From contig JAVLBA010000001.1 of NCBI GenBank assembly GCA_031581485.1, positions 26,440 through 90,439 of the forward strand: a stretch of DNA of 64,000 nucleotides, in the 5' to 3' direction. Source of the stretch: Desulfurivibrionaceae bacterium. GTDB lineage: Bacteria > Desulfobacterota > Desulfobulbia > Desulfobulbales > SURF-16. This document shows, piece after piece, positions 24,038 to 41,374 of the stretch (the first letter of the stretch is position 1; each line of letters opens with the position of its first letter). The notes beneath the pieces were generated by a model. It was not told where the DNA came from and did no database searches. It saw only the letters and a list, made by a program, of their open reading frames with translations. A program made the translations under genes and the position numbers.

Positions 24038-24568
24038 ATGAAATACGCAGGAATTAAAAAACCACTATCTTGGATCTTTTTTCTTAGTCTCCTTATTTTT
24101 GCGGCACCTGCTGGCGCTGCAACGCCTGCTGATATTGCAGAGATCCCCTCGTGCGGCTATTGCGGTATGGATCGGGAAAAATTTGCCCACTCCAGGGTCT
24201 ATCTGTCATATGCAGACGGCACCAAGGCAGGGGTATGTTCTCTGCACTGCGCCGCCATTGAGATGATTGTCAAATTAGATAAGGAACCCCTGGAAATTAT
24301 GGTTGGTGATTTCAACACCCGGGAGTTAATTAATGCCGATAAAGCCTACTGGGTCATTGGTGGTGATATGATGGGCGTCATGACCAGAAGGGCGAAGTGG
24401 GCCTTTGCTGACAAGGCGGCGGCTGAGAAGTTTATCAAGGAACATGGCGGCACCATGGCCACCTTTGAAGAGGCGCTGAAGGCCTCTTTTGAGGATATGT
24501 ATGAAGACGTAAACATGATAAGAGAAAAGAGAAAGATGATGCGGATGAAAAAGATGCAGCACATGTAA
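24038..24568 (+). CDS. NosL family copper chaperone
   Basis: Signal peptide, CGYCGM, CSLHC, AYWVIGG..GVM, FIKEHGG, Met-rich tail. Confidence 0.85.
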   Translation: MKYAGIKKPLSWIFFLSLLIFAAPAGAATPADIAEIPSCGYCGMDREKFAHSRVYLSYADGTKAGVCSLHCAAIEMIVKLDKEPLEIMVGDFNTRELINADKAYWVIGGDMMGVMTRRAKWAFADKAAAEKFIKEHGGTMATFEEALKASFEDMYEDVNMIREKRKMMRMKKMQHM

Positions 24569-24658: not shown

Positions 24659-25372
24659 ATGAAAAAAATTATAGGCAAGGCTCTCTTATCTCTCTTAAAA
24701 CGGTCGCCAGCCCTGTTTGAGAGATACAGCGAAGAACATAAACACTCCTTGCAAGTGGCCCATGATAAACTGGCAGAAATTAACCTTGAACTGGAGGAGA
24801 AAAGCGCTGAAACTATTCAGGAGCTCATGGAAAAAAATGCCGAACTGGAAAGGCTTTCCATTTCGGATCCGCACACCCGGCTTTACAATCGGCGCCATTT
24901 TGACACATACCTGCTCAAGGAGTGGTACCGAGCCCAGCGCAGTCACGATCATATATCCCTGATTCTTTGTGACCTGGACCACTTCCATGCCTATAATGAG
25001 GCCTATGGATATGAGACGGGCAATGAGTGTATTCATCATGTCGCCCAGGTAATAGCTCACTTCACCAGACGGCCCTATGATATCCCGGCTAGATACGGCA
25101 GCAAAAAGTTTGCGGCCATTCTGCCCCATACCGATACAGACGGGGCCATGATTATCGCAACCGGCATCAAGGATGAAGTGGAAAAAATAGCGATTCCACA
25201 CATTAAATCACCCATTAAGAACATTGTCACCGTAAGCTTTGGCGTCGCCACCGTGCTCCCTGAAAAGGGTAAAGATTGCGCCGCCCTTATCGCCATGACA
25301 GAAGAGGCCCTTTGTGAGGCCAAAAGCGGGGGCCGGGACCGAATATCTGCCAAGAGGGCTGCAGGGATATAG
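24659..25372 (+). CDS. degenerate GGDEF-domain protein
   Basis: Coiled coil, DPHTRLYNRR, DLDHF, RYGSKKF in place of RYGGEEF, VTVSFG, AKSGGRD. Confidence 0.85.
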   Translation: MKKIIGKALLSLLKRSPALFERYSEEHKHSLQVAHDKLAEINLELEEKSAETIQELMEKNAELERLSISDPHTRLYNRRHFDTYLLKEWYRAQRSHDHISLILCDLDHFHAYNEAYGYETGNECIHHVAQVIAHFTRRPYDIPARYGSKKFAAILPHTDTDGAMIIATGIKDEVEKIAIPHIKSPIKNIVTVSFGVATVLPEKGKDCAALIAMTEEALCEAKSGGRDRISAKRAAGI

Positions 25373-25568: not shown

Positions 25569-26045
25569 ATGAAAAAACTTCTAGGCACGATTCTCTTATC
25601 TCTTTTTCTTATTATCAGCACAGCCTATGCTGTGGGGATAAAGCCGGCAACGCCGCAGTCAGGTGATAAATGCCCTGTCTGCGGCATGTTTGTGGCCAAA
25701 TATCCTGACTGGGTCTGTGAAATAATGTACCAGGACGGTACGGTCCTCTTTTTCGACGGGACAAAAGATCTCTTTAAGTTCTACTTTGAACCTCATAAAT
25801 TCAAATCCAGCAAACAGCGTCAGAATATCAAGGCCATTTATGTGACAGAATACTATGACTTGAATTTCATTGAGGCCAGAAACGCCTTCTATGTCATGGG
25901 CAGTGATGTCTATGGCCCCATGGGCCTGGAGCTGGTTCCCTTCAAGACCGAAAAAGACGCCACAGAATTTCTCAGGGACCATCACGGCAAGAAAATTATC
26001 AGTTTCAACGATGTGGATGCTGCCCTGATCAAAACCCTTGATTGA
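25569..26045 (+). CDS. NosL family copper chaperone
   Basis: CPVCGM, FFDGTKD, YVMGSDVYGPMG, FLRDHHG. Confidence 0.9.
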   Translation: MKKLLGTILLSLFLIISTAYAVGIKPATPQSGDKCPVCGMFVAKYPDWVCEIMYQDGTVLFFDGTKDLFKFYFEPHKFKSSKQRQNIKAIYVTEYYDLNFIEARNAFYVMGSDVYGPMGLELVPFKTEKDATEFLRDHHGKKIISFNDVDAALIKTLD

Positions 26046-26149: not shown

Positions 26150-26818
26150 GTGATAGAATTTTACAATATTAAAAAAACCTTCAATCTCGGCAAAGCAAAC
26201 CAGTTTGCCGCCCTCAAAGATATCAGCCTCACTATTGAGAAAAATAAGATAACTGTCCTGAAAGGGCCGAGCGGCTCGGGTAAGACAACCCTTGCCAGTC
26301 TTATCGGCTGCATGTCCAGGCCCACCTCAGGCAGAATCAAAATAGATGGCAGAGAGATCACTTCACTGCCGGAGAGATTTTTGGCCGAGATTAGACGGGA
26401 TAATTTCGGTTTCATATTTCAGCGCTTCAATCTCATAACAGGCATCTCGGTTTTGGAAAACACCCTCTTGCCCACCTATCCCATGGGGCTAAAGTCTTCC
26501 CTGGCCCAAAAAAAGGCCATCACCCTGCTGGAAAAATTAAACATCGGTTCCAAAATTCGCCAGGAGGTTGAGAATCTCTCCAGCGGTGAACAGCAGCGGG
26601 TGGCTATTGCCAGGGCGCTGATCAATGACCCCCTCTTTATTATTGCTGACGAGCCCACTGCCCATCTTGACCAGAATATGGCGGTGAAATTCATTGATAT
26701 CGTCTCACAACTCCACGCTGAAGGCAAAACCCTGCTTATCGCCAGCCACGACCCTTTGCTCTATGATTCAGAAATCGTGCACCGGGTGATTGCCTTGCAA
26801 GATGGTCAATTAGTATAA
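26150..26818 (+). CDS. LolD/MacB-type ABC transporter ATP-binding protein
   Basis: GPSGSGKTT, GFIFQRFNL, LSSGEQQR, ADEPT, ASHD. Confidence 0.92.
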   Translation: MIEFYNIKKTFNLGKANQFAALKDISLTIEKNKITVLKGPSGSGKTTLASLIGCMSRPTSGRIKIDGREITSLPERFLAEIRRDNFGFIFQRFNLITGISVLENTLLPTYPMGLKSSLAQKKAITLLEKLNIGSKIRQEVENLSSGEQQRVAIARALINDPLFIIADEPTAHLDQNMAVKFIDIVSQLHAEGKTLLIASHDPLLYDSEIVHRVIALQDGQLV

Positions 26819-26833
26819 AGGATAGGTCATTCA

Positions 26834-27838
26834 TTGTTTATCAATCCCGCGATTATCGGTCTTACAGCTGCATCATTGCTGGTCTCAGGAGTTACCATCT
26901 ACGCCTCGATTATCGGCGCGGTGATCATCCGCTCATGGGACATCAACAGTGGCAGTGAAAGGCAGCTCCAGCTCGAAAGAAAGACCTATCTGATCTCAAC
27001 TGTCCTCAGCTACGTTCTGGTGTGTGAACTCCTCTCCCTGCTCCTGTTTGTCGTCAACGCCGACACTATGCACAGCCTGTTTACCGGTGCTATGTGTGCG
27101 GCCGGCACCCTTTATGCCAACAGTTATGGCTACCCGACCCTGTTGACTAAAATTGCCGTCTGCATCATGTCAGGAGTCTGGTTGATTGTTAATCATGTTG
27201 ACAACCGGGCCTATGACTACCCGCTGATAAAATTTAAATATGGATTTCTCCAGCTGATCACCGTCATCATTATCCTGGAAGCCGTCCTCCAGATAAATTA
27301 TTTTATGGCCCTGGATCCTGAAATAATTACCTCCTGCTGCGGCACCCTGTTCAGCGGTGAAGCCGACACCCTGACCGGCGAATTGGCCCACCTCTCCCCC
27401 CTTACCGCTAAAATGTCCTATTATCTGACCCTCACAGGCACCTTCACTGCCGGGGCCTGGTTTTTGTTGAGGGGCAGGGGGGCGTTGATCTTTTCCTTCT
27501 TTAATTCTCTGCTTTTTTTTGTCTCCCTGGCCGCGATAATCTCCTTTATCTCTCTCTATTTCTATGACCTGCCCACCCATCACTGCCCCTTCTGCATTTT
27601 ACAAAAGGAATATCATTATGCCGGCTACATTCTCTACCTGGCACTTTTTACGGCCACCATTGCTGGTGGGGGGATTGCGGCACTTGCCCCCTTCACAGGG
27701 CATAAATCCCTGGAAATGATTTTACCAAGAGTTCAACGAAAACTTTGCCTTCTTGCCATGATCGGCCATGCAGTTTTTGCCACACTGTGCACGTACCAGG
27801 TACTGTTTTCTGATTTAAAACTGGGCGGCTACTCCTGA
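26834..27838 (+). CDS. multi-TM membrane protein with Cys/His motifs
   Basis: About 8 hydrophobic helices; GAMCAAG, TSCCG, HHCPFC. Confidence 0.8.
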   Translation: MFINPAIIGLTAASLLVSGVTIYASIIGAVIIRSWDINSGSERQLQLERKTYLISTVLSYVLVCELLSLLLFVVNADTMHSLFTGAMCAAGTLYANSYGYPTLLTKIAVCIMSGVWLIVNHVDNRAYDYPLIKFKYGFLQLITVIIILEAVLQINYFMALDPEIITSCCGTLFSGEADTLTGELAHLSPLTAKMSYYLTLTGTFTAGAWFLLRGRGALIFSFFNSLLFFVSLAAIISFISLYFYDLPTHHCPFCILQKEYHYAGYILYLALFTATIAGGGIAALAPFTGHKSLEMILPRVQRKLCLLAMIGHAVFATLCTYQVLFSDLKLGGYS

Positions 27839-28146: not shown

Positions 28147-28188
28147 AGGGGAGAATTATGAAAACAAAGGGGAGGATTATGAAAACAA
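28147..28188 (+). repeat. 21-bp tandem duplication of RBS plus ATG
   Basis: AGGGGAGAATTATGAAAACAA followed by AGGGGAGGATTATGAAAACAA, one mismatch. Confidence 0.9.
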
Positions 28189-29804
28189 AACTAAATTCTT
28201 TTTGGGTATTGTTGGTAGTTCTGGCGGCAATTTTTTTCATGCAGACCAAGGCGGCATGGGCCCTGCCTGCTAACAGCCGGGTGTATCAGACCAGCTGTGT
28301 CACCTGCCACGATTCTCCTCCCAGGCTGAACGCCGTGGGCGAGGCCTTCCGCCTCAACGGTTATAAATTCCCGGACGACGAGACAAAGAGAAAACTGAAG
28401 CCGCTGCCCCTGGGTGATGAAGCTTACCAGCGCCTGTGGCCAGAGGCCATCTGGCCCGGCGAGAAGCCCGACTTCAATCCCATTTCCTTAGTGAGCATCT
28501 GGGCCCTGGAGTATCATGATAACCAGCCCATAGACCCGAAAACAGGTGAAGAGGGACCCACCTACTCTATTGTGGCCCCCCATGAGATTGAGCTGGCATG
28601 GATGTCTCCTCTGGGCGATCATATCTCCGTTTATGGTGACGCCAGATTTATCCAGGAAGACTGGGGCGGCACCGAAATGGATTCCTGGGTTGCCTTAAAG
28701 GCCTGGATCGAATTTGAGGACCTGTTCGGCATCGAGAATAAACTCAACTTGCGAGTCGGCTCGCTGGGGATGCACAGCATTCACCTGTTGACCGCCCGCA
28801 ACGAGCACGCCATGGGTTTTCAGAACTATCTGATGAATACCTATCTGCTACCGGGCCTCTCCAAGAGTTCAAGAACTACGGTCGACGAGTATCCTCAGAG
28901 CGATATTGATGAAGTAGATTTCGACATCAGATCATGGGTGGGCAACAACTTTACCATTGGGCCCAAGGTCGGCATAGAGCTCAACGGCTTTACCCGCCAT
29001 CTTGCCTATAATATCGGCGTGGTCAACGGCAAGACCGATGATCCCACCGACGGGGTCTTCTTCATGGGGTCCGGCTCCAACACGGGCCGCAAGGATTATT
29101 TTGCCAACCTGGCCATCAAGTTCGGCGGCCTTGGCTTTGACGCCTCCACCGGTGCCGAAGAGGAGGAGGACCCCTTTGCCGAAGAGACCGCGGTCAAAAA
29201 AGAAAGCGGTGACAGCCAGTTCTGGCGTGACGACAGTCTGACCGTCTCCTTTATGGGCTATAGGGGCGAGGGGGCGACCGAGCTGATCTACTATTCCAAC
29301 AGCGCAACGGCCATGTTCGCTACAGGCCAGGTAACTGAATACGTCAAGGAAGATTTCTGGCGCCTTGGTGTGGGCGCCATGTGGAAATTCAAAGATTTAA
29401 CCGTGGAAGCCGCCCATATGTGGGGGCATCATGACAATCCTTACGGTGATCTCGATACCAGGCCGGACCCAAGCGTTGAGACCAGGGTCTGGCATGTGGG
29501 TGCGCATTATTATCTCTACCCCTGGCTGGTGCCCTTCGCCAGGTTTGAAGAGCTCAAATTCTTCGATCTGCCCGGCCAAGATGTCTTATTGCTTGATGTC
29601 GAACAAGACAGACAACTGGTTACGGTGGGGGCGAAAATGCAGATTCGCCCCAATATCCACCTCAATATCGAGGGCTATTATTACACGGATACCGGAGATG
29701 CCACGGTGGTCAACCCGGACAGTACTAAATATATCGGAGTTTCTGAGGAGGCGGTATATCTTAATGATGAAACAGTAATGATGATATTGCGGGCTGAGTT
29801 TTAA
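28179..29804 (+). CDS. Cyc2-like monoheme cytochrome c fused to outer-membrane beta-barrel porin
   Basis: Signal peptide ending AWA, ALPANSRVYQTSCVTCHDSPPRLNAVGEAFRLNGY, amphipathic beta strands, terminal LRAEF. Confidence 0.78.
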   Translation: MKTKLNSFWVLLVVLAAIFFMQTKAAWALPANSRVYQTSCVTCHDSPPRLNAVGEAFRLNGYKFPDDETKRKLKPLPLGDEAYQRLWPEAIWPGEKPDFNPISLVSIWALEYHDNQPIDPKTGEEGPTYSIVAPHEIELAWMSPLGDHISVYGDARFIQEDWGGTEMDSWVALKAWIEFEDLFGIENKLNLRVGSLGMHSIHLLTARNEHAMGFQNYLMNTYLLPGLSKSSRTTVDEYPQSDIDEVDFDIRSWVGNNFTIGPKVGIELNGFTRHLAYNIGVVNGKTDDPTDGVFFMGSGSNTGRKDYFANLAIKFGGLGFDASTGAEEEEDPFAEETAVKKESGDSQFWRDDSLTVSFMGYRGEGATELIYYSNSATAMFATGQVTEYVKEDFWRLGVGAMWKFKDLTVEAAHMWGHHDNPYGDLDTRPDPSVETRVWHVGAHYYLYPWLVPFARFEELKFFDLPGQDVLLLDVEQDRQLVTVGAKMQIRPNIHLNIEGYYYTDTGDATVVNPDSTKYIGVSEEAVYLNDETVMMILRAEF

Positions 29805-29813
29805 GAAAAAGAA

Positions 29814-29884
29814 TGAAGGTTGAAGTGGCGTGGGTACGCTACGCCACTTCAACCTTCAGCCTTCAACCTTCAACCTTCAACCTT
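29814..29884. repeat. 18-bp perfect inverted repeat overlapping five CTTCAAC heptamers
   Basis: TGAAGGTTGAAGTGGCGT (29814-29831) pairs with ACGCCACTTCAACCTTCA (29841-29858); heptamers run 29847-29881. Confidence 0.9.
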
Positions 29885-29895
29885 GAGAGCTGAGG

Positions 29896-30570
29896 ATGAG
29901 AATTGCTGCGCTTTATTTTTTGATGTTAGGGGCTGTTGCCCTCATGCTGCCGATGGTTTCCCTCGCCCAGGAAGAGTCCGGCTATGGCTCGGTGGGCGGC
30001 ATCATCATGGTCTGGAAGACAATGGTTGAGACCACAGGCCCCAGAAACGCCAAAGATGTTATCGTCTATCTGGAAAGCGACAAATCCTTTCCGCCGGTAA
30101 CGGACAGACTCATACAGATGGATCAGAGGGGGTTGCTCTTTATCCCCCATGTCCTGGCCATCCAGAAGGGCACCTCGGTTGAGTTCCTCAATAATGACTC
30201 GGAAAAACATAATGTCTTTTTCCTCTTTGACAAAACCGGCGAAACTCTGGATATCGGCACCTGGGAGAGGGGGCAAAGCGTGGTTCATACCTTTAACGAA
30301 ACCGGCACAGTCATCACCCTGTGCAAGCTGCATCTGGAGATGGCGGCCAATATAATCATCCTGGATAATCCATATTATACCCATGCCGAGATTGACGGCG
30401 ATAGCCAGCGGACCACATATCGTCTAGATAGAGTTCCGCCTGGAGAGTATGTCTTGAAAACATGGCATAAAAAACTGAAGATGAAAGGAGGTGAGGCCCC
30501 CATCAAGGTTGAGGCCGGGAAGATGACCAAGGTGAATATTGCCATTACCAAAAGACAGTATGCCCACTAG
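29896..30570 (+). CDS. periplasmic cupredoxin-domain protein with carboxypeptidase-regulatory-like beta domain
   Basis: Signal peptide, MDQRGLLFIPHV, HNVF, type-1-like Cu ligands CKLHLEM, VPPGEYVLKTWH. Confidence 0.78.
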   Translation: MRIAALYFLMLGAVALMLPMVSLAQEESGYGSVGGIIMVWKTMVETTGPRNAKDVIVYLESDKSFPPVTDRLIQMDQRGLLFIPHVLAIQKGTSVEFLNNDSEKHNVFFLFDKTGETLDIGTWERGQSVVHTFNETGTVITLCKLHLEMAANIIILDNPYYTHAEIDGDSQRTTYRLDRVPPGEYVLKTWHKKLKMKGGEAPIKVEAGKMTKVNIAITKRQYAH

Positions 30571-30711: not shown

Positions 30712-32646
30712 ATGAAAAAATATATAAAATTACTGACAATCGGCTTGGCCATAGTGCTGATTTGCGCCATGATCCCGGTACTGTTGGCAGAACCAGCACC
30801 CGAGGTCGGCCAGAAGAGGGACTTCTATATAAAGGCAGAGCTCTGGGAGTATTCCCCCCATCGCATTGTGGTGGATCAGGGGGATGAAATTCGCCTCAGA
30901 CTTGCCTCCAGGGATGTGGTCCATGGTTTTCACCTTGAAGACCACGGCATCGAGGCCACCATCTTTCCCGGGAAAATCCCTTTTTATCTCCGCAACCCTG
31001 AGACAGAAGAAAAAGCCATCCAGGTTACGGAGACTTCATTTATAGCCGACCGCTGGGGCAAGTTTTTTTACCGGTGCTCGGTTACCTGCGGCACGTTGCA
31101 CCCTTTCATGTTGGGCGAGTTGATTGTCCGGCCCAACTATCCATTTAAGGCCGCTGTCGGCGCGATGCTCGGGCTCCTTTTGGCCTCTTTCATCCTCATG
31201 TTCATGGATGCCAGGCAGCGGCCATCCCCTGACACATATGTCAGCCCGCCGCCCCCCTGGAGGCTGGACCTGTTGGCCAAGATACCTGGCCTCAGGAGGC
31301 TGCTTACCTTTAAAGGCCTGCCGTTCTCTCTTTATCTCCCTATTTTCGGCTGTCTGATCTTTTTTATCATTGCCGGTTTTTATGGCTCACCCATCGGCAA
31401 CAAAAACATCAGTGTCACCGTTGTCTGGATTTTTTGGTGGTTCTTGCTCATCTGTTTCATGATCCCCTTTGGCGCCAGAATATGGTGCATGGCCTGCCCC
31501 TTCCCTTTTCTGGGGGAGTGGCTGCAGAGGGGCAGACTGTTAGGCCCAAGCCGTGCAGACACCCGCACCCAGCCCATGAGGGGCTTAAGGAAAAAATGGC
31601 CAAAAGCCCTTTCTAATATTTGGCTGCCGAACATCCTCTTTCTCTCCCTCTGCACCTTCAGTGCCATGCTGGTCACCCGTCCGATCACCACTGCTGTGGC
31701 GCTGGTGGGTCTCACCATCCTTGCCACGGCCATCCATTATATCTACCGCAAACGTACCTTCTGCAACTATATCTGCCCGGTAGGGGGGTGGATGAGCCTG
31801 TACAGCATGGCGGGCATGGTCGAGGTACGATCCCGGTCACCATTGCTTTGTGCCGGCTGCCGGACCAGGGCCTGCGTCAACGGCAATGAACGGGGCTGGA
31901 GCTGCCCTTGGTCCCAGAACCCCAGTAAGCAGAGCCTCAACAATCACTGCGGGTTATGCATGGAGTGCATCAAATCCTGCGACAACAGCAATATGACGTT
32001 ACAGGCTCGGCCCTTTTGTACTGATACCGACATCAAGGGCTATGATCAGGCCTGGATGGCCTTTATTATGATCACCCTCGCCCTGGTCTACAGTGCCACC
32101 TATCTCGGGCCTTGGGGATTTCTCAAGAGCTGGGCCAATGTCAGCGAGGTTCGTAATTTTCAGGGATTTGCAATTTTTGCCGGCACTCTTTGGTTTACTG
32201 CCTTGATTGGTTTTCCTGCTCTCTGGTTTGTTTTTGCCTGGCTCGGCAAGGTACTCGCCGGCCGGAAAAGTGTTCCCACCAGCAAACTCTTTGTCAAGTA
32301 CTCGTATCTTCTGGTCCCCCTGGGTTTAACGGCCTGGATCTCTTTCAGTCTGCCGGCGGTGCTGGTAAATAATACCCATATAATTTCCAGCTTTTCAGAC
32401 CCCATGGGCTGGGGCTGGGACCTTTTTGGCACCGCCCACATGGAGTGGAAACCGCTTTTCCCGCATTACATTGTCTATATTCAAATAAGTTCATTGTTAA
32501 TCGGTCTGACCTTTTCCATGAAACGGGGCTACGAGATTGCGCAAAAAATTTATCCCGTGCCAAGTGAAGGAATAAGAAGCCTTATGCCCTTGGCAGCCTT
32601 GTGCACAGGAATCTCCATAATTTTGTTAAGAATTTTTGCGGGCTGA
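30712..32646 (+). CDS. CuA cupredoxin domain fused to NapH/NosR-like membrane 4Fe-4S protein
   Basis: DVVHGF...CSVTCGTLHPFM; multiple TM helices; CMACP, CNYICP, CAGCRTRAC...CP, CGLCMECIKSC. Confidence 0.82.
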   Translation: MKKYIKLLTIGLAIVLICAMIPVLLAEPAPEVGQKRDFYIKAELWEYSPHRIVVDQGDEIRLRLASRDVVHGFHLEDHGIEATIFPGKIPFYLRNPETEEKAIQVTETSFIADRWGKFFYRCSVTCGTLHPFMLGELIVRPNYPFKAAVGAMLGLLLASFILMFMDARQRPSPDTYVSPPPPWRLDLLAKIPGLRRLLTFKGLPFSLYLPIFGCLIFFIIAGFYGSPIGNKNISVTVVWIFWWFLLICFMIPFGARIWCMACPFPFLGEWLQRGRLLGPSRADTRTQPMRGLRKKWPKALSNIWLPNILFLSLCTFSAMLVTRPITTAVALVGLTILATAIHYIYRKRTFCNYICPVGGWMSLYSMAGMVEVRSRSPLLCAGCRTRACVNGNERGWSCPWSQNPSKQSLNNHCGLCMECIKSCDNSNMTLQARPFCTDTDIKGYDQAWMAFIMITLALVYSATYLGPWGFLKSWANVSEVRNFQGFAIFAGTLWFTALIGFPALWFVFAWLGKVLAGRKSVPTSKLFVKYSYLLVPLGLTAWISFSLPAVLVNNTHIISSFSDPMGWGWDLFGTAHMEWKPLFPHYIVYIQISSLLIGLTFSMKRGYEIAQKIYPVPSEGIRSLMPLAALCTGISIILLRIFAG

Positions 32647-32650
32647 CATT

Positions 32651-33823
32651 ATGAAAAGAGAGAAACTGGCCACTCTGAGTGTCATCTTCATTATCATTCT
32701 TGTCCCGGCTCTTGTGCTCTCGGCAATATGGTACAGAGAAGAACGCTTTCTGGCTGAGTATCCAGCAGGGGTAAAGGTCTTTGATATTACCGGCGTTGCT
32801 GAAAACGGTGCCTTTACCCTGGATACGGTTAATGGCCTCAACTATTGGTGGAAGAAATTCCAGCCCATGCTCGTGCATGTGTTTGTGGGGGACCAGGTTG
32901 TTTTACGATTAACGACCGCCGATGTTGTTCACCAATTTTATGTACCAGCCCTGAACCTGGGCCCCGTAAATATAAAACCGGGTCATCCCGTCCAACTTGA
33001 GTTCCTGGCTGAAAAGCCCGGGGTCTACCAGTATTTCTGCACCTCCCTCTGCGGCAATTGCCATTTTTATATGAGCGGCTGGATTGTCATAACTCCGGTT
33101 GGAGAGACCGCCTTGACACCGCCACCGATCACCTGTCCCCTTTGCGTACCCGGCTATATCGAGCGGCCTGAGGATGATTTAATTGATCTCGGGGAATATC
33201 TTTATCTGCAAAAGGGGTGCAACACCTGTCACGGCAACGCAGGTATTGGCGGGGTAGAGAATCTGAATTATGCCAAAAAGACGGTGCCGGCCCACAATGA
33301 AACAGCTAAAAAGCTTTTTCTGAAAGAGGAAGAAGATGCCGAGGCCTTTATTGATCTGATAAGCAAATATCCTGACCTGGAAAACCTGCCAGAGACCCCG
33401 GACATTCCGCGATTCCATCTGGTGTTGGCGAGATATCTAGCCACCAAAGAATTGGTAAAGAAAGGGTCGCCCGCCATAAAATTGGATGAAAATGGCCCTA
33501 TGCCCCCTCTGCAGATGCCGGCTTGGGAGGCCCAGTTGCCGGACCGTGACATAGATGCCCTTCTCAGCTATTTTCTCACCCTGCAACCCTGGGAAGAAGC
33601 GGCTATGAAGGATGGAGACGAGCCCAGATTTACTGATGAGCCAAGCTTTGATGATGAGCCAAGCTTTGGAGATGAGCCGAACTTTGGAGATGAACCCGAC
33701 TTTGGAGATGAACCGAATTTTGATGATGAGCCGGACTTTGGAGATGAACCGAACTTTGATGATGAGCCGGACTTTGGGGATGATGAGGAAAAACCGGGCT
33801 CTGAAAAGAGTGCAGGTCCTTGA
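32651..33823 (+). CDS. membrane-anchored CuA (CoxII-like) plus cytochrome c protein with acidic repeat tail
   Basis: One N-terminal TM, DVVHQF...CTSLCGNCHFYM, CPLC, heme motif CNTCH, distal MPAW. Confidence 0.82.
   Translation: MKREKLATLSVIFIIILVPALVLSAIWYREERFLAEYPAGVKVFDITGVAENGAFTLDTVNGLNYWWKKFQPMLVHVFVGDQVVLRLTTADVVHQFYVPALNLGPVNIKPGHPVQLEFLAEKPGVYQYFCTSLCGNCHFYMSGWIVITPVGETALTPPPITCPLCVPGYIERPEDDLIDLGEYLYLQKGCNTCHGNAGIGGVENLNYAKKTVPAHNETAKKLFLKEEEDAEAFIDLISKYPDLENLPETPDIPRFHLVLARYLATKELVKKGSPAIKLDENGPMPPLQMPAWEAQLPDRDIDALLSYFLTLQPWEEAAMKDGDEPRFTDEPSFDDEPSFGDEPNFGDEPDFGDEPNFDDEPDFGDEPNFDDEPDFGDDEEKPGSEKSAGP
33617..33778 (+). repeat. nine tandem 18-bp coding repeats (DEPxF[G/D/T])
   Basis: GATGAGCCGGACTTTGGA-type unit repeated nine times with variation. 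Confidence 0.95.
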
Positions 33824-34191
33824 TGAAATATAAAATTTTCGCCGGAATTTTATTATGTGAGATTCTACTCTTAACAACCCTGGCGGTCTCTGCCGCTATC
33901 TCCTCAACGAAGAGGGCTCCAGCCCTTGAGGCCAACCAGCAGCTGGTTGAAAACCTGATGCTCACTGACCTCTCGCTCTGGACCGAGACCAGCTACAGCA
34001 GGCACCCCTCGCAGGCCGATTTTTTTGCCCCCTTTCAAGATGCTCCCGGAGCCATTGAACGGTTCCCTGCTGGTTCACTGACCGCCCCTGCCGCGCTTTA
34101 TAACATATCGCAAAGAGCGGCTTCCCGGCCAAACTCTCCCGGCCGGATCGCTGAAACAGACTCCGATAATGAACAGGCGGCGAGAAAATGA
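33823..34191 (+). CDS. small membrane-anchored hypothetical protein
   Basis: TGATG and ATGA overlaps with both neighbours; N-terminal TM; LTDLSLWTETSYSRHPS. Confidence 0.75.
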   Translation: MKYKIFAGILLCEILLLTTLAVSAAISSTKRAPALEANQQLVENLMLTDLSLWTETSYSRHPSQADFFAPFQDAPGAIERFPAGSLTAPAALYNISQRAASRPNSPGRIAETDSDNEQAARK

Positions 34192-35360
34192 AGATAGAAA
34201 AACACATCCGCATACTTGAGTTTGCCCTGTCGTCACTCTTCAGGCAGAAACTCAAGAACATTATTATTATTCTGGCCTACACCTTAAATGTCTTCATCTT
34301 CTCGTCCGCTATTTTTTTCTCTGAATCCCTCAAGAATGAGGCGGTTACCTTACTGGAATACTCGCCTGAACTCATTGTCCAGAGAATGAGAGGGGGACGG
34401 CATGAACTGGTGCCGCTGCAATATGCCGAAAAAATTAAAGAGATAAGAGGGGTGACGGCGGTCACCCCTCGGTACTGGGGATACCATTACGACCCGCCGG
34501 TCAATAACAACTACACATTTTTAGGTGCCGACCAGCTGCCCCCAGAGGTATTGGAAATGGTTGAAGGCTCCTTTTACGAGCAGGAGGGCAACGATTTATG
34601 CGTTATTGGCCAAGGTGTTGCAGACGCCCGCTTTGTAGACACAGAGGACATCATTCCGGTCCTGGGGGCTGACGGTGATCTGCATGCCTTAAGGGTGGCT
34701 GGAATATTTACGGCAAAATCAAACATACTGACCAATGATCTGGTGATCCTCAAAACGGCTGATTTGAAAAAAATCTTTCTCATCCCCGATGATATGGCCA
34801 CCGACCTGGTTGTTAAGGTCAGAAACGTCAACGAGGTCTCGACAATTGCCCGGAAGATTCAGGAGATGATGCCTGATAGCAGGCCCATTGAAAAATCACA
34901 GATTATCAAAACCTATGAAGCGATATTTTCCTGGCGGGGCGGCTTGATGGTGGCGATATTTTTCGGCTCCATAACCGCCTTTTCCATCCTGGCCTGGGAC
35001 AAGGCCACCGGCCTCAGCGGCCAGGAGAGAAAAGATATAGGCATACTGAAGGCCATCGGTTGGGATACTTCCGACATTATTGAACTGAAATTCTGGGAAG
35101 GGTTTATCATCTCCAGCATGGCTTTTTTCCCCGGAATTATCTTCGCCCAGGCCCATATCTATCTGTTGGACGGCCTTATTTTTTCTCCCCTGATGAAAGG
35201 CTGGTCCAGCATCTTTCCGCAAATAAATCTGGCGCCGCAAATTGAGATTTATCATCTTATTGTGATTATCTTCCTTACCATTATCCCTTATATAACAGCG
35301 ACCCTGATCCCCTCCTGGAAAGCGGCAATCACCGATCCGGATATGATCATGAAGGGGTAA
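34188..35360 (+). CDS. FtsX/MacB-like ABC transporter permease
   Basis: 1 TM, large periplasmic domain, 3 TM; ERKDIGILKAIGW; PSWKAAITDP. Confidence 0.9.
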   Translation: MKIEKHIRILEFALSSLFRQKLKNIIIILAYTLNVFIFSSAIFFSESLKNEAVTLLEYSPELIVQRMRGGRHELVPLQYAEKIKEIRGVTAVTPRYWGYHYDPPVNNNYTFLGADQLPPEVLEMVEGSFYEQEGNDLCVIGQGVADARFVDTEDIIPVLGADGDLHALRVAGIFTAKSNILTNDLVILKTADLKKIFLIPDDMATDLVVKVRNVNEVSTIARKIQEMMPDSRPIEKSQIIKTYEAIFSWRGGLMVAIFFGSITAFSILAWDKATGLSGQERKDIGILKAIGWDTSDIIELKFWEGFIISSMAFFPGIIFAQAHIYLLDGLIFSPLMKGWSSIFPQINLAPQIEIYHLIVIIFLTIIPYITATLIPSWKAAITDPDMIMKG

Positions 35361-35973: not shown

Positions 35974-36843
35974 TCATTGGGTGAGGCTGAAGGTAATCGG
36001 CATAGTGATCTCGGCGTCTTCCAGGGGGAGCGGGAACGGCGCGACCTGCCGCACCACAGCCATGGCCTGGCGGTCAAGCAGGTCGTATCCCGAGCTTGCC
36101 AAGACGGTGATGCCCTCCACGCCGCCCTCGTGATTGATACGGAAGGAGAGTTTGACCTGACCCGTCCAGCCTTTCTTCCGGGCCACGGCGGGATAGCGCA
36201 AGTTGCGCAGGACCCGGTCGCGGATACCGGCGAAATGGTTGGTCCGGTACTGTTCCTGGCTGCTCTGGGAGTGCTCTCCCGTGACCGCTTCCCGGCTGGC
36301 GGTCTGGGCAAGTGTGGCGGGGTTTGCTGGGCCGGATGGCGCTGGCCTGGCAAGCCCTGCAGCTGAGGCGAGTGGCTTTGGCAAAACTGTTTGTGTTGCC
36401 GATTCTACCTTGGTCGCTGCTCTTTCCTCCTGGACAAATGATTCTGCCGCTGCTGGTTCTGCTGGCGGTGTTTCAGCCACCAATGCTTCCCGTTCTGGTG
36501 CCTGTACCGCTTTTTTCTGGTGGCGCTGCTCGATAATGGGCGGATTGGCATCAACGGCGGCTTCCACAGGCCTCGTGTCTTGGCCGACTTCAGCAGCCCG
36601 TTGCAAAACTGGTGCGCTTGCTGATGCCTCAGCTGCGCTCGCTACCTTTTTCAACGGGCTGTCAGAGGTGACGGGAAGCGCGGGGGCGGACATCTCTTGG
36701 CCATTGCCGTCGAGCATGGTGAAATTCATCAGATCGATGCGCTGGGGAACGCTGACCGTGCGTGTGGCGCCGATAATCGCCAGCACCAGCAGCACATGAA
36801 TGGCACACGAAAGCAGCAGGGCCTTTATCTGTCTGGTCATCAT
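35974..36843 (-). CDS. tonB: energy transducer TonB
   Basis: SxxxH TM motif SCAIH, Ala/Pro-rich linker, YPAVARKKGWTG, SSGYDLLD. Confidence 0.9.
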   Translation of the reverse strand: MMTRQIKALLLSCAIHVLLVLAIIGATRTVSVPQRIDLMNFTMLDGNGQEMSAPALPVTSDSPLKKVASAAEASASAPVLQRAAEVGQDTRPVEAAVDANPPIIEQRHQKKAVQAPEREALVAETPPAEPAAAESFVQEERAATKVESATQTVLPKPLASAAGLARPAPSGPANPATLAQTASREAVTGEHSQSSQEQYRTNHFAGIRDRVLRNLRYPAVARKKGWTGQVKLSFRINHEGGVEGITVLASSGYDLLDRQAMAVVRQVAPFPLPLEDAEITMPITFSLTQ

Positions 36844-37220
36844 ATCTTTTCAGTCTGCAAACTCACCTTGGCAAAACCCAACCCTTTTACCGTGTTGAGC
36901 ACCTTAACAAAGTTCTGCAGGGCAATCTGCCGGTCGGCGCGGATGAGGACAGTGGTTTCCCGTTCATGGGAACGAAGCCGTTCCTCCAGGGCCGCCATGG
37001 TCACCGGTTCCGCATCCAGGACAATGGCCCCCTGTCTGTCAATATCGATCAGGATAGCCTGCTTTGTCGTTGATGTCTGACTGGCCGAGGCCTTTGGCAG
37101 GTCAACGCTGATGGTCCCCTGGGCGATAAAGGTCGAGGTGGTGAGCACAATGGTGAGCAGCACCAGCATGATGTCGATGAAGGGGATGACGTTGATGGAA
37201 TCAAACTGTGTGTCATCCAT
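36840..37220 (-). CDS. exbD: biopolymer transport protein ExbD
   Basis: INVIPFIDIMLVLL, VDLPKA, IRADR. Confidence 0.93.
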   Translation of the reverse strand: MDDTQFDSINVIPFIDIMLVLLTIVLTTSTFIAQGTISVDLPKASASQTSTTKQAILIDIDRQGAIVLDAEPVTMAALEERLRSHERETTVLIRADRQIALQNFVKVLNTVKGLGFAKVSLQTEKI

Positions 37221-37635
37221 ATTGGGACTCCCATTGAACCAGCAGCACCTTGACCCGCCGCAGCAGGAAGTTGTAGAGGATGATGGCCGGTATCGCCACC
37301 ACCAGGCCAAGAGCGGTGGCCTTGAGGGCCAGGGCCAGGCCGACCATGATCTTGCCGGTGTCCATGAAACCCTCTTGGCCGATGCCATAAAAGGTGAGCA
37401 TGATGCCCAGCACTGTGCCCAGGAGACCGATATACGGAGCATTGCTGCCGATGGTGGCGATGATGTGGAGTTTGTCGGTGAGCTCCAGTTTCAGGGTCTG
37501 GTGATCACCATAGTCAGCAAGCCGAATGCCGTTATAAAAGAGCTGGCGTTCAATGGCTATGGCCACGGCGATGACACTCATCAGTAACAGTAAACCGATA
37601 ACGCCGTAGTCAATTGTTGCCTGCAGCCAATCCAT
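37213..37635 (-). CDS. exbB: TonB-system energizer ExbB (short form)
   Basis: TIGSNAPYIGLLGTV, ALKATALGLVVAIP. Confidence 0.93.
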   Translation of the reverse strand: MDWLQATIDYGVIGLLLLMSVIAVAIAIERQLFYNGIRLADYGDHQTLKLELTDKLHIIATIGSNAPYIGLLGTVLGIMLTFYGIGQEGFMDTGKIMVGLALALKATALGLVVAIPAIILYNFLLRRVKVLLVQWESQYG

Positions 37636-37825
37636 TGCTATCTCCTTTCTTTTTTTTCTTGAATCTGGAATAGGCTGCCACTCCCAGCACCGCTACCCCA
37701 CCACCCACGCAGCCGAAGCAGGAGGCGCATCCTCCCCCAGCGCAACCGGCCGATGCCAGAAGCCCACCCACTCCACTTGCCACACCGATGCCGGTCCCGA
37801 ACAGTTTTGCACCCATATTTTTCAT
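37610..37825 (-). CDS. 71-aa Gly/Cys-rich membrane microprotein
   Basis: MKNMGAKLF...CAGGGCASCFGC...RFKKKKK; fills the gap between the Fe-S gene and exbB. Confidence 0.65.
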   Translation of the reverse strand: MKNMGAKLFGTGIGVASGVGGLLASAGCAGGGCASCFGCVGGGVAVLGVAAYSRFKKKKKGDSNGLAAGNN

Positions 37826-37829
37826 AGGA

Positions 37830-38654
37830 TCACCGATAATCAATGGCCTGCTGGGGGCAGGCCTTCTGGCATTCCCGGCAGGGGAAGCAGGAATAATGGT
37901 TGATGGTTGCCTGTTCATCCCGTTCGATGGCCCAAGTGGGACAGACATGTTCGCAGGCCCCGCAGCCATTACATTTATCAGCGTTGACCCGCATTCTTTT
38001 GCCGAACCGGGCACCGATCCTGTTAACAAGAGTGTCCAGGGCGCCGATGGGACAGAAAAAATTACAATACCCCCGGCCGCCGCGGGCCATGAAGCCGAGC
38101 AGGATGATCATGCCCAGATTGATCAGGCCGGCGGTCCGCAGGAAATAGGCAAGATCCGCCTCCATGAAGGCGGACCCGAACAAACGCGGCATGGTGGCGA
38201 AATTGCAGTAGCTGCAGCAGAGGCTCCCGATGCCAAAGAGCGGTGCCAGAAGATAAACGGCAAGGTAGCCGTAGCGCACTGGTGGGGCCGAGATGCCCGT
38301 GTAGTTGATCTGCAACTTTTTTGGCACAAGCCGGCTGCCCAGTTCGGTGGAGCTGCCCACCGGGCAGAGATGGCTGCACCAATGGCGACCAAAGAAAAGA
38401 GTGGAGAGCAGGATGGCGGCGACCAGCGCCACTCCCATGTAACTCCGTAAAAAACCCATGAAGAACTGGCTCACGGTCATGCCCTCGCGCCAGGTGAAAA
38501 ACATGCGCGGGCACCATTCGCCGCAGAAATTCACGCTACCGGTGCTGGCCTGGAAAATGAGGGCCAGGGGCGGCAGAAAGGCCATAACCGCCAGCACCAG
38601 GATCAAGGTTCGGTGTTTTGCCCACAAAGATATTTTTGTCCTGTTCGCATTCAT
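37830..38654 (-). CDS. NapH/MauN-like membrane 4Fe-4S binding protein
   Basis: CGEWCP, CSHLCP, CCSYC, CNFFCP, CNGCGACEHVCP, CFPCRECQKACP. Confidence 0.88.
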   Translation of the reverse strand: MNANRTKISLWAKHRTLILVLAVMAFLPPLALIFQASTGSVNFCGEWCPRMFFTWREGMTVSQFFMGFLRSYMGVALVAAILLSTLFFGRHWCSHLCPVGSSTELGSRLVPKKLQINYTGISAPPVRYGYLAVYLLAPLFGIGSLCCSYCNFATMPRLFGSAFMEADLAYFLRTAGLINLGMIILLGFMARGGRGYCNFFCPIGALDTLVNRIGARFGKRMRVNADKCNGCGACEHVCPTWAIERDEQATINHYSCFPCRECQKACPQQAIDYR

Positions 38655-39253
38655 TCGGCTCGGTCTTCCTTGCTGTTAAAATGAATAGGCACCCGCATGA
38701 CCTGGTTTCCGGAGGCCATGTCATAGAAGGCCAGCGACGGCCCGGTGACAGCGCTATGCTGGTACTGGTTGCCGCTCCGGGCAACCGCCGCGCTGCTTTC
38801 CGGGCAGCAGGAAGCGCCCGGCCCCGGTTCGGCAGGCGCCGCCACAGCGCTTTTAACCATTGCATCAGCACTGCTGCCATCCGGCCGCATGACCACCCAG
38901 AGGACCAACCGATCACGGGGCTGCACTCCTTTGAGAACATGGTCCCGGAAAACCGGCTCCCGGTGCAGACCAAGGGGGATCATCGGTTCGGAGTTGTGAA
39001 TGGCCCAGGTCATGCCGGGGACATTTTCCACCACCACACGCACGTCACCGCGATAGGGCGGTAACACCGTGGCCGTGGCGATCATGACATAGCGGTTCAG
39101 GCCGCACTCAAAATGGGCGGCGTGTTTCACCCGACCGCCGTCCTTGCTGAGCAGCGCCATGGAATGGGCCGAATCACCGAAATGGGACACCACCCCCAGC
39201 AAGGATAGGCCTACGGCGGCGGTAAAGGTGATCATCGTCTTGATGTTCTTCAT
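38651..39253 (-). CDS. exported His-containing hypothetical protein
   Basis: N-terminal hydrophobic segment, GGAG RBS, translationally coupled to the next gene. Confidence 0.75.
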   Translation of the reverse strand: MKNIKTMITFTAAVGLSLLGVVSHFGDSAHSMALLSKDGGRVKHAAHFECGLNRYVMIATATVLPPYRGDVRVVVENVPGMTWAIHNSEPMIPLGLHREPVFRDHVLKGVQPRDRLVLWVVMRPDGSSADAMVKSAVAAPAEPGPGASCCPESSAAVARSGNQYQHSAVTGPSLAFYDMASGNQVMRVPIHFNSKEDRAE

Positions 39254-39265
39254 GGCAACCGCTCC

Positions 39266-41374
39266 TTAAAAGGCGTAGGTGAACTTGCCGAAAAAGGTGC
39301 GTGGCGCCCCGGGCCTGTACCGCTTCTCGTCAGAGTACTTGGTCACCTCCATGGCATAGGTGTCGTCAAAGAGGTTCTGCACATCCAGGGTCACAGCCCA
39401 GGGACCTTTCTCATAGCCGACCATGAGTTTGGTCAGGAAGGTATAGCCCTCATATGTCTCGGAATTAGCGGCATCAACGTAATATCTGCCCCAGGTGGAG
39501 GTAGTGACACTGCACTTGAATCCTTGCGGGTGCCGATAGCGGGCGAACAACGAATACTGGTGCTCCGGGATATAGGGGAGCTGGTTGCCGCTGTGGTCCA
39601 GCAGGACGGTGCTGGTGGTGTGAGTCACCGGATCATAGACCCGGATCGGTTCGCTGAATTCGTCAAATTCGAAATCGCTGTAGGTGTAGGTGCCGCCGAT
39701 GGCCAGCCCGTCCAGGGCCTGGTAGGTGCCTGTAAACTCAAGGCCGTTTTTTCTTGTCTCGCCAGCGTTGTTATAGGAGCTCTCCCCGCCAGGGAGAAGG
39801 GTCTGGATCACCTCGTCGCTCACCTGCATGTGAAAGAGGGCCAGATCCAGTGCATGTCCGCCCTTGAAAAGGGCCTTCATTCCGGTTTCGTAATTGACGG
39901 TGGTTGCCGGCGTCAGGTTAGGATTGTCTTCCAGTTCCGATGACTGAGGTGTCTGGAAACCGGTGGAAACCGTGCCGTAGAGACTGTAAATGCTGTTTAT
40001 TGCGTAGACCACGCCCAGCCGTGGGCTGACCCGCTCAAAGGTTTCATCAATGTTAATGGTCTGCCTGTTGGCCACAAAACTGGCCGTTGCATAGGAATAT
40101 TCCTGGAATATTTCTGAGTCGAAATCAAAGGTGACCCGGTCGTACCGCACGCCGAGATCAACGAGCCAGGCATCCCCGGGCCGGAGGGTTTCCTGGAGAT
40201 AGAGACCCCACTTGTTCACCACTTCGTCACTGGTTTCCATCAGGTCGCCTTTTTCATCGGACAGGGTGGAGAGCAGGCGGCCCGAGTCGGAGGTAAGGAT
40301 GTCACGGTAGGTGAATTTTTCGCTGTCCATGCTGTCCTGTTGGCCACTGATGCCGGATACCAGTTCAGAATTAAGACCAAAAAGCTGGTGCGCGAAGTTT
40401 GCCTGCACATCGGCACCCAAGATATCGGCGCCGCCGTCGTTGATGCCGCCCGTGACCGGATGAAAATGTTCCCAGCTCTGGTAATAGACCAAGGGTTTGA
40501 TGGTAACCGGCCCCAGGGGCTTTTCATATTTCAGGGTGGTGTAGTAGATGGTGCTGTCCCGGGCCGAGTGCCTGAAGGGACCGTCGGTGAGCTGGCTGAT
40601 ATCGCTTTCGAACTGCTCAAGGCTCAAACTACCGGGCAGCTCGATTTCCGCCTCTGTCATATTAAGATTCAACTCCAAAGAGGAGTTATCGTCAAAAGCA
40701 GTGCCGAATTTGATCCCTGCCTGGTCGGATTCAAATTCATTATGCTCCCGCCAGCCGTTGGAGGATTTATGCGTCCCGGAAAGGGTGGCATAGAGGCCCC
40801 CTACATGGCTGCCGTATACCCCGCTCAGCAACGTGGTGTCATCGCTGCCGTACCCTGTCTTCAGGCTCTTGATTTCTTCGAAGGGACTCTTGGTGATGAC
40901 ATTGATGACGCCACCCGCGGCGTTGGCCCCGTACAGGGTAGAGTTGGGACCCTTGGTCACCTCAACCTGCTCGATGAGCTGGGTGTCAACAAAGTCGAGC
41001 CTGGTGAAACCGTCCGGGTCGGTGATGGGCACACCGTCGAGCAGCACCATAATTTCCCTGACTCCATAGCGGGCCTTGAGTCCGGCTCCTCGAATGATGA
41101 GCCGGGCGTCATATCCACCGTTTCGGCTCTCCGCCTGGACACCGGCCACGCCCTCCAGGGCTTCCTTGACGCCGATCAGGCGTGAATCCTCAATGGTCTC
41201 TTGGCTGACCACGGTGACCGCCGCCGGCACTTCCCGAGTGGAGCGCTCGCTCCTCGTGGCGGTGACCACAATCTCTTCAAATTCATGTTTGATTGGTTCC
41301 CCCTCAGCACCGTGGGCGGATCCGACAGCACCCAACAGCAGCGCGCCGCCTAAAAATAAGAGTTCTCGTCTCAT
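39266..41374 (-). CDS. TonB-dependent outer membrane receptor
   Basis: TonB box EEIVVTATR, IRG, IEQVEVTKGPNSTLYG, GGVINVITK, NLFD, terminal YAF. Confidence 0.95.
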   Translation of the reverse strand: MRRELLFLGGALLLGAVGSAHGAEGEPIKHEFEEIVVTATRSERSTREVPAAVTVVSQETIEDSRLIGVKEALEGVAGVQAESRNGGYDARLIIRGAGLKARYGVREIMVLLDGVPITDPDGFTRLDFVDTQLIEQVEVTKGPNSTLYGANAAGGVINVITKSPFEEIKSLKTGYGSDDTTLLSGVYGSHVGGLYATLSGTHKSSNGWREHNEFESDQAGIKFGTAFDDNSSLELNLNMTEAEIELPGSLSLEQFESDISQLTDGPFRHSARDSTIYYTTLKYEKPLGPVTIKPLVYYQSWEHFHPVTGGINDGGADILGADVQANFAHQLFGLNSELVSGISGQQDSMDSEKFTYRDILTSDSGRLLSTLSDEKGDLMETSDEVVNKWGLYLQETLRPGDAWLVDLGVRYDRVTFDFDSEIFQEYSYATASFVANRQTINIDETFERVSPRLGVVYAINSIYSLYGTVSTGFQTPQSSELEDNPNLTPATTVNYETGMKALFKGGHALDLALFHMQVSDEVIQTLLPGGESSYNNAGETRKNGLEFTGTYQALDGLAIGGTYTYSDFEFDEFSEPIRVYDPVTHTTSTVLLDHSGNQLPYIPEHQYSLFARYRHPQGFKCSVTTSTWGRYYVDAANSETYEGYTFLTKLMVGYEKGPWAVTLDVQNLFDDTYAMEVTKYSDEKRYRPGAPRTFFGKFTYAF

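Follow-up and report, generated by a model that had tools for sequence, protein, structure and literature searches.

To our knowledge, work on CuA has dealt almost exclusively with its role as entry point of oxidases and of N2O reductase. For proteins of the NapH/NosR type it is still an open question how electrons cross the membrane; NapH's membrane segments have been suggested to oxidise quinol and to feed the periplasmic NapG (PMC5928378). Cyc2-like genes are widely taken as markers of iron oxidation, and Cyc2 proteins are recognised by a signal peptide, a single N-terminal CXXCH, a porin barrel, a length of >365 aa and the motifs AXPXFAR[Q/K][T/Y] and PXL (10.1101/228056). Here we describe a locus in a stretch of 64,000 nucleotides from a Desulfurivibrionaceae bacterium (the window). 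The gene at 30712-32646 encodes a 644 aa protein with 11 predicted transmembrane segments in which a CuA domain is joined to a membrane iron-sulfur protein (the fusion). It is part of a cassette together with a Cyc2-like haem porin, a blue-copper protein and a second CuA protein. Two CuA domains occur here with neither an oxidase nor NosZ in the cassette. All genes are on the forward strand unless stated otherwise.

A first-pass annotation, made from the sequence alone, had reported the fusion and overlooked the cassette, above all the upstream haem porin. Each part is of a kind already known; for the combination the literature searched has no description. No description of the fusion or of the cassette was found in full texts, a search which left most subscription journals outside and in which supplements on the Cyc2 tree or on flavinylation could still list such loci. 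PMC5566968, PMC9040806, PMC13741234 and 10.1101/2024.09.20.614158 describe other systems.

CuA domain, membrane topology and relatives of the fusion

A homologue search with the fusion in a protein collection gave 928 matches among 7997 scored candidates. The best 120 of these are full length with 47-85% identity, and together with the query they form the alignment of 121 sequences on which all conservation counts for the CuA clade are based. The cupredoxin domain comprises residues 34-141 (30811-31134). The complete set of CuA ligands claimed earlier is present as H71...C122-x3-C126-x3-H130-x2-M133, and every ligand is invariant (121/121). The domain architecture bears this out, Pfam reporting COX2 at residues 50-133 with 30.1 bits against a cut-off of 22 and, in addition, a weak match to Fer4_5. 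In the AlphaFold model (pLDDT 92.6, pTM 0.92) residues 34-141 match the CuA constructs of Thermus ba3 with Z 12.6-13.1 and an rmsd of 1.2-1.3 Å over 92 residues. A structure search with the whole model listed no solved structure for the membrane part, the lists being filled by the CuA domain. Among 13,718 open reading frames (ORFs) of the host genome the CuA motif occurs in two, i.e., the fusion and the next gene downstream.

The 11 hydrophobic segments delimit loops rich in K+R (6.1, 5.3, 5.8, 4.0 and 3.4) which alternate with loops poor in K+R (0.9, 1.0, 1.3 and 0.8). This alternation predicts the CuA domain outside, in agreement with the earlier periplasmic assignment, and the cysteine motifs, without exception, on the inner side. 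The count for the CuA loop is 3.3 K+R close to its ends, so that its own side is assigned by the parity of the remaining loops.

On the predicted cytoplasmic side translation and alignment reveal two cysteine-proline motifs and a ferredoxin-type domain with two clusters. Two CX3CP motifs had been announced; the second is indeed of this form (C351-x3-C355-P356; 31762-31779), whereas the first is a CX2CP (C259-x2-C262-P263; 31486-31500). Similarly, of the two 4Fe-4S-type motifs (31849-31980; weak matches to NapH models) one is canonical with C413, C416, C419 and C423 in 121/121 each, whereas the other, C380-x2-C383-x4-C388...C398-P, is atypical, with C380 in 116/121 and C388 in 98/121. Five further helices, 7 to 11 (32050-32637), follow C-terminally of the iron-sulfur domain. 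In the main CuA clade no intramembrane histidine which might bind haem is conserved across the 121 sequences. A haem b wire from the iron-sulfur clusters to CuA is thus not supported, and the transmembrane wire of the first-pass annotation lacks a visible relay between the two. Invariant intramembrane residues peculiar to the CuA clade include C314 (121/121) and M453; C314 is not conserved in three deeper-branching fusions. A disulfide between C18 and C631 was considered and rejected as covariation is absent (p 0.73). Longer fused forms of 1128-3220 aa were not encountered among 3142 candidates, which is weak evidence.

The assignment to a NapH/NosR type could not be upheld. The NosR model NF046105 has no match to the fusion at E<=0.01; two NapH models reach 32 bits against a cut-off of 234 and 31.6 bits against 213, and the host's own NapH scores 23.5 bits. 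By these sequence scores the fusion is a member of neither family. An FMN_bind domain was not found by Pfam at the N-terminus, where COX2 stands instead. In the Atlas, residues 145-644 group with long Fer4_5 membrane proteins (TM-score 0.76-0.88 over 420-477 residues) which are found by themselves or in fusion with cNMP, sigma-54 activator or CtaG domains; phosphatase-named clusters are also among the relatives of this membrane fold. These long proteins, the closest family of residues 145-644, are presumably of the FesM type.

The nearest branch devoid of CuA shares about 30% identity with the membrane part and all core cysteines. A profile search in 401 genomes of the phylum, in which up to three candidates per genome were scored, yielded 11 genomes with a match at E<=1e-60; in five the match extends into the N-terminal cupredoxin, in six it does not. 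As a sister set we used the 120 proteins listed by a search with one CuA-free relative. According to precomputed Pfam entries, which many of the proteins lack, they carry YHS (42), NosL (6) or heavy-metal-binding (4) domains, and FMN_bind appears in none; a domain scan of seven of the 120 confirmed six such N-terminal domains. The CuA motif is absent from all 120. Consequently, CuA stands in for a metal-chaperone-like domain or for nothing, and not for a flavin domain as had been supposed. The sister family is widespread (e.g., L071:8739-10271 and L072:8900-10885) and is itself a candidate copper reductase or transporter; in the literature searched no paper on this NosL/YHS-fused family was found.

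The two clades differ in the periplasmic halves of helices 7-10. In query numbering, the CuA-free clade has H460, M464, M490, H542, H545 and H549 in all 120 proteins listed, further E553 in 117/120 and H599 in 101/120. At the same positions the CuA clade has Y460, W542 and F545 (121/121 each), L549 (116/121) and N553 (120/121), and the HxxHxxxH of the sister array is present in 0/121. The deepest fusion, from genome G121, retains H460. The CuA fusions form one group in quick trees of 40 and of 19 sampled membrane domains (SH-aLRT 99 and 100). An AU test, run with a long-branch outgroup and for a group named after the first tree had been seen, rejects a single clade of the His-bearing lineages (p 0.0045). 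Together, these sequence data suggest that the His/Met array was lost on the CuA stem.

The cassette and its variable partners

A scan of GTDB genomes yielded 38 loci, 29 of them close relatives and nine distant. The close loci are from Desulfobacterota, Acidobacteriota, Verrucomicrobiales, Methylomirabilota, Betaproteobacteria, Chondromyces and Ignavibacteriales; the nearest, with 93% identity, bears the title Desulfurivibrionaceae, and among the carriers there is a cultured strain, Desulfoluna limicola ASN36 (L017). The cassette is lacking from the nine distant loci. Among relatives of the host the full fusion is present in only 2/61, i.e., the cassette is patchy. The following counts are taken only from loci with enough flank.

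Directly upstream of the fusion 24/24 loci encode a secreted type-1 cupredoxin (29896-30570; ligands H...C-x2-H-x2-M; Pfam Copper-bind above cut-off). It is preceded by the Cyc2-like monohaem cytochrome-porin (28179-29804) in 23/24 loci; the 24th is interrupted by N. Downstream, again in 24/24 loci, a membrane-anchored protein combines CuA with a class I cytochrome c (32651-33823). Accessory genes surround this core: a small conserved protein (33820-34191) and a MacB/LolE-type ABC permease (34188-35360), both in 19/22 loci, an FtrD-like cysteine-rich protein (PF10080; 35373-35813) in 20/22, a LolD/FtsE-type ABC ATPase (26150-26818) and a cysteine-containing conserved membrane protein of 334 aa without family match (26834-27838) in 13/17, and NosL in 12/17. 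The window has two NosL-family genes (24038-24568 and 25569-26045); they are split by a GGDEF gene (24659-25372), while in other loci the two are adjacent. A second NosL/small/permease/ATPase/membrane module on host contig C195 (L053:2642-10286) is devoid of copper carriers, which marks the NosL/ABC genes as a general accessory. That module has a thioredoxin-like gene and adjoins a secreted protein of 411 aa without Pfam or NCBIfam match.

The Cyc2-like protein of the window is 541 aa long and has a signal peptide, one N-terminal CXXCH and a porin barrel. A single N-terminal CXXCH is found in 22/24 porin copies; two matches are broken ORFs. The model is a general-porin barrel (Foldseek E 1.7e-11 to PorB) at pLDDT 64, with <50 in the haem region. 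The motif AXPXFAR[Q/K][T/Y] ahead of the haem is strictly kept in 2/18 aligned copies and in a relaxed form in 17/18; PXL after the haem is present in 12/18. A 7-base tandem repeat of 5.4 copies (29847-29884) lies between the porin and cupredoxin genes. The type-1 copper motif is conserved in 28/29 cupredoxin copies. In the CuA-cytochrome c the CuA loop has an overlapping haem-type CXXCH motif in 23/23 copies and a further CXXC in 22/23; these additional cysteines may pair in a disulfide or keep haem from being attached to the loop. The acidic tail of this protein, missing from most distant copies, is encoded by an 18-base unit repeated about eight times (33635-33783).

Partner exchange was inspected in twenty further regions. 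In five genomes of one Desulfobacterota family (L079, 2744-9941; L082-L085) genes for Rieske and cytochrome b and for octahaem and monohaem cytochromes c come after the porin-cupredoxin pair. A Rieske/cytochrome b complex is a quinol:cytochrome c oxidoreductase. In L078 the pair is followed by the octahaem cytochrome without Rieske or cytochrome b, and in L080 and L081 by signalling genes only; in L042 the two CuA genes precede an Fe-S flavoprotein of the NAD(P) type together with the same bc-type genes. Two genomes, G299 and G224 (100% and 99% complete), carry the fusion, a blue-copper protein, a single-domain CuA protein and a periplasmic multihaem cytochrome. In a distant fusion (L077:404-1531, G474), the gene of which is in two frames in the assembly, the Met ligand of CuA is replaced by Glu. 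Thus, fusion, second CuA and blue-copper protein are the constant core, the outer partner varies, and so does the inner partner of Cyc2.

The host genome is 93% complete, which limits all negatives reported for it. COX1 (oxidase subunit I) has no match in it, NosZ was not found, and FTR1 permease has 0 matches, nor is it encoded in the cassette. The host genome has NapA/G/H/B/C, DsrA, bd oxidase and a multicopper oxidase, the latter being the only other copper enzyme found. With neither oxidase subunit I nor NosZ in evidence, a CuA domain on a membrane iron-sulfur protein as an electron-transfer terminal, as first annotated, remains the simplest reading. Two other origins were dismissed. A role as NosZ accessory is rejected because NosZ is found in 6/30 host genomes (three above cut-off, three in pieces) and is absent from the cassettes; an oxidase subunit II standing alone because the rest of its operon was not assembled is unlikely, as the cassette is whole at either side and its conservation does not include subunit I.

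Promoters were scanned in 21 loci, nine with too little flank being left out. Sigma-54-like motifs precede 10/21 cassettes against a background of 3.6%, mostly in related Acidobacteriota; upstream of the window's own cassette there is none. Fur-like boxes are not enriched (2/21 against 5.1%), nor are FNR boxes among these promoters.

Further genes border the cassette. A convergent cluster on the reverse strand (35974-41374) encodes a TonB-dependent receptor, a 200 aa protein, a shorter NapH-like polyferredoxin, ExbB, ExbD and TonB; its first three genes are linked to the cassette in 4/30 loci. A large secreted choice-of-anchor O protein is encoded <10 kb from the cassette in 8/29 loci across phyla (L017:2677-5652, L022:930-4856 and six more), an assignment confirmed by NCBIfam for two loci. 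In two metatranscriptome runs from salt lakes, both of one study, 5-6% of words are shared; the short contigs, mostly of 80-99% identity, are scattered over the cassette and are not evidence of transcription.

Direction of electron flow and rival explanations

We propose that the fusion oxidises menaquinol and passes the electrons via CuA to a periplasmic copper/haem chain which ends at the Cyc2-like porin and reduces a soluble external acceptor. To this proposal we give not quite an even chance. Quinol would bind in the periplasmic half of helices 7-9, at the residues Y460, W542 and F545 which replace the supposed ancestral His/Met metal site, and the CuA domain would assume the role which NapG has toward NapH. 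From CuA the electrons would proceed to the CuA-cytochrome c, the blue-copper protein and finally the Cyc2-like haem, an order guessed from gene order and location. Candidate acceptors are chelated Fe(III), Mn(III/IV) and Cu(II). NosL and the ABC module would load or mature the copper sites. Between the cytoplasmic clusters and CuA the distance is probably too great for electrons to pass directly; these clusters may have a part in assembly or sensing or belong to a second branch.

Ligands, fold, gene order and the exchange of residues are direct observations and the topology is a prediction; quinone pocket, carrier order and direction are what we infer from the locus and its relatives. The potential of CuA is near +250 mV. 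Menaquinone is at -74 mV (PMC5928378), and the Cyc2 of PV-1 is at +208 mV (10.1101/228056). Outward flow would thus be downhill, and it is these potentials together with the NapH precedent that lead us to propose this direction. The exchange of the fusion for a Rieske/cytochrome b complex supports a quinol-oxidising role. The cassette names the partners of Cyc2-like proteins in anaerobes and makes the direction testable.

Several observations weigh against this proposal. The Cyc2 motif of the window's porin is degenerate with Asn replacing Phe, and the Cyc2 proteins of tested activity in the sources consulted are Fe(II) oxidases, which points inward. Cyc2 itself is not obligatory, as G299 and G224 have no match at E<=1e-10. 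The Rieske/cytochrome b loci are from one family and represent about one event. A COX1-family gene is present elsewhere in 24/29 other host genomes, in which the cassette may work with an oxidase or NO reductase encoded apart from it. Finally, the nearest relatives of the membrane domain bear copper-chaperone-like domains, and a putative distant relative, CcoG, is a Cu(II) reductase according to a review.

A broader formulation appears doubtful to us: a haem-free quinol:copper oxidoreductase as a fourth CuA setting beyond oxidases, NosZ and CuA-NOR. It would have arisen from a copper-handling iron-sulfur protein which traded its His/Met site for an aromatic quinone pocket and CuA, and in sediment anaerobes it and the Rieske/cytochrome b complex would be interchangeable at the inner-membrane end of a Cyc2 conduit wired by copper. 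In that case a part of the Cyc2-like proteins would be exporters of electrons rather than iron oxidisers.

The electrons may also flow inward, which we regard as unlikely. The Cyc2-like protein would then oxidise Fe(II) or another reduced metal, most electrons would reach nitrate reductase or an oxidase via the copper carriers, and the fusion would be an uphill branch reducing quinone or a cytoplasmic carrier, as bc1 does in Acidithiobacillus. The nitrate reductase, DsrA and bd oxidase genes of the host fit this view; so does the Rieske/cytochrome b swap, as the bc complex is reversible. However, the branch is uphill by about 300 mV, and the fusion has neither a haem pair nor a visible coupling device. 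The named hosts are mostly sulfate reducers and members of heterotroph lineages and are not known as iron oxidisers. Precedents are the rus operon, which combines Cyc2, cytochrome c and cupredoxins (PMC10654088), and two Cyc2 proteins which oxidise Fe(II), that of PV-1 and a cluster-3 Cyc2 from a Nitrospirota of anoxic sediment with nitrate-reduction and Dsr genes. Yet the function of cluster-3 Cyc2 is called most uncertain in 10.1101/228056.

Quite unlikely, in our judgement, is a function in metal handling. Here the cysteine motifs and iron-sulfur clusters would reduce Cu(II) as CcoG does, or the cassette would, like FtrABCD, serve uptake by altering the redox state of iron or copper, the cupredoxin domains being metal or electron buffers. 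The metal-binding N-termini and the invariant His/Met array of the sister clade point this way, as do one Atlas neighbour fused to CtaG, the NosL, MacB-type ABC and FtrD-like genes of the cassette, C314 and M453 in the membrane, and the convergence of the TonB cluster in 4/30 loci. The loci without Cyc2 adjoin a multicopper oxidase (G224) or a gene of a heavy-metal-resistance family (G299). Against this, the absence of the His/Met array from 121/121 sequences of the CuA clade speaks against a metal channel, and C314 is not kept in the deeper-branching fusions. FTR1 was not found in the host, Fur-like boxes are not enriched, the second NosL/ABC module of the same genome has no copper carriers, and the multicopper oxidase is the only other copper enzyme found.

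That the membrane iron-sulfur domain is a redox sensor which informs a regulator encoded by another gene about the state of the copper chain in the periplasm is very improbable: fusions of the same fold to sigma-54 activators and cNMP domains, its phosphatase-named clusters, the enrichment of sigma-54-like promoters and activators or PAS kinases near several loci would fit, but the fusion has no output domain, regulators are not conserved neighbours, the window's cassette has no sigma-54 motif, and the bc-complex swap suggests flux rather than sensing.

Comparison with described systems

Several described systems resemble parts of the cassette. Unlike subunit II of haem-copper oxidases, the fusion has no subunit I encoded in its cassette. 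From CcoG it differs by the lack of cbb3 operon linkage and in that no COX1-family gene was found in the host. FtrABCD and P19-FTR1 likewise cluster cupredoxin, FtrD-like and MacB-type ABC genes, but our cassette has no FTR1 permease and no Fur-box enrichment, and its ligands are those of canonical CuA and type-1 copper. The rus operon found in Acidithiobacillus ferrooxidans also unites Cyc2, a cytochrome c, a blue-copper protein and a CuA subunit (PMC10654088). In contrast to it, the cassette lacks oxidase subunits I, III and IV, has two CuA domains and an iron-sulfur membrane end, and is found mostly in anaerobe lineages.

With respect to the membrane part, NosR, NirI and PceC similarly have a periplasmic redox domain N-terminal to a membrane iron-sulfur core (PMC8238504), yet the fusion has no FMN-binding domain, five extra helices after the iron-sulfur domain and no nosZ in the cassette. 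NapH is similar in that its membrane core bears a pair of cysteine motifs and, facing the cytoplasm, two ferredoxin-type clusters. In the fusion, for which the same orientation is predicted, the first motif is CX2CP and one of the two Fe-S motifs is atypical; it differs further by its 11 helices, a built-in CuA instead of a separate NapG, and the lack of an adjoining napA. The closest likeness is with the FesM-like domain and the NosL/YHS-fused branch, which have the same membrane fold and cysteine pattern. Compared with these, the fusion has gained CuA, carries Tyr/Trp/Phe in place of the His/Met array and has no regulatory domain. The paired clades, one with the His/Met array, the other with CuA and aromatic residues, offer a natural comparison with defined residues for transmembrane electron movement of the NapH/NosR type.

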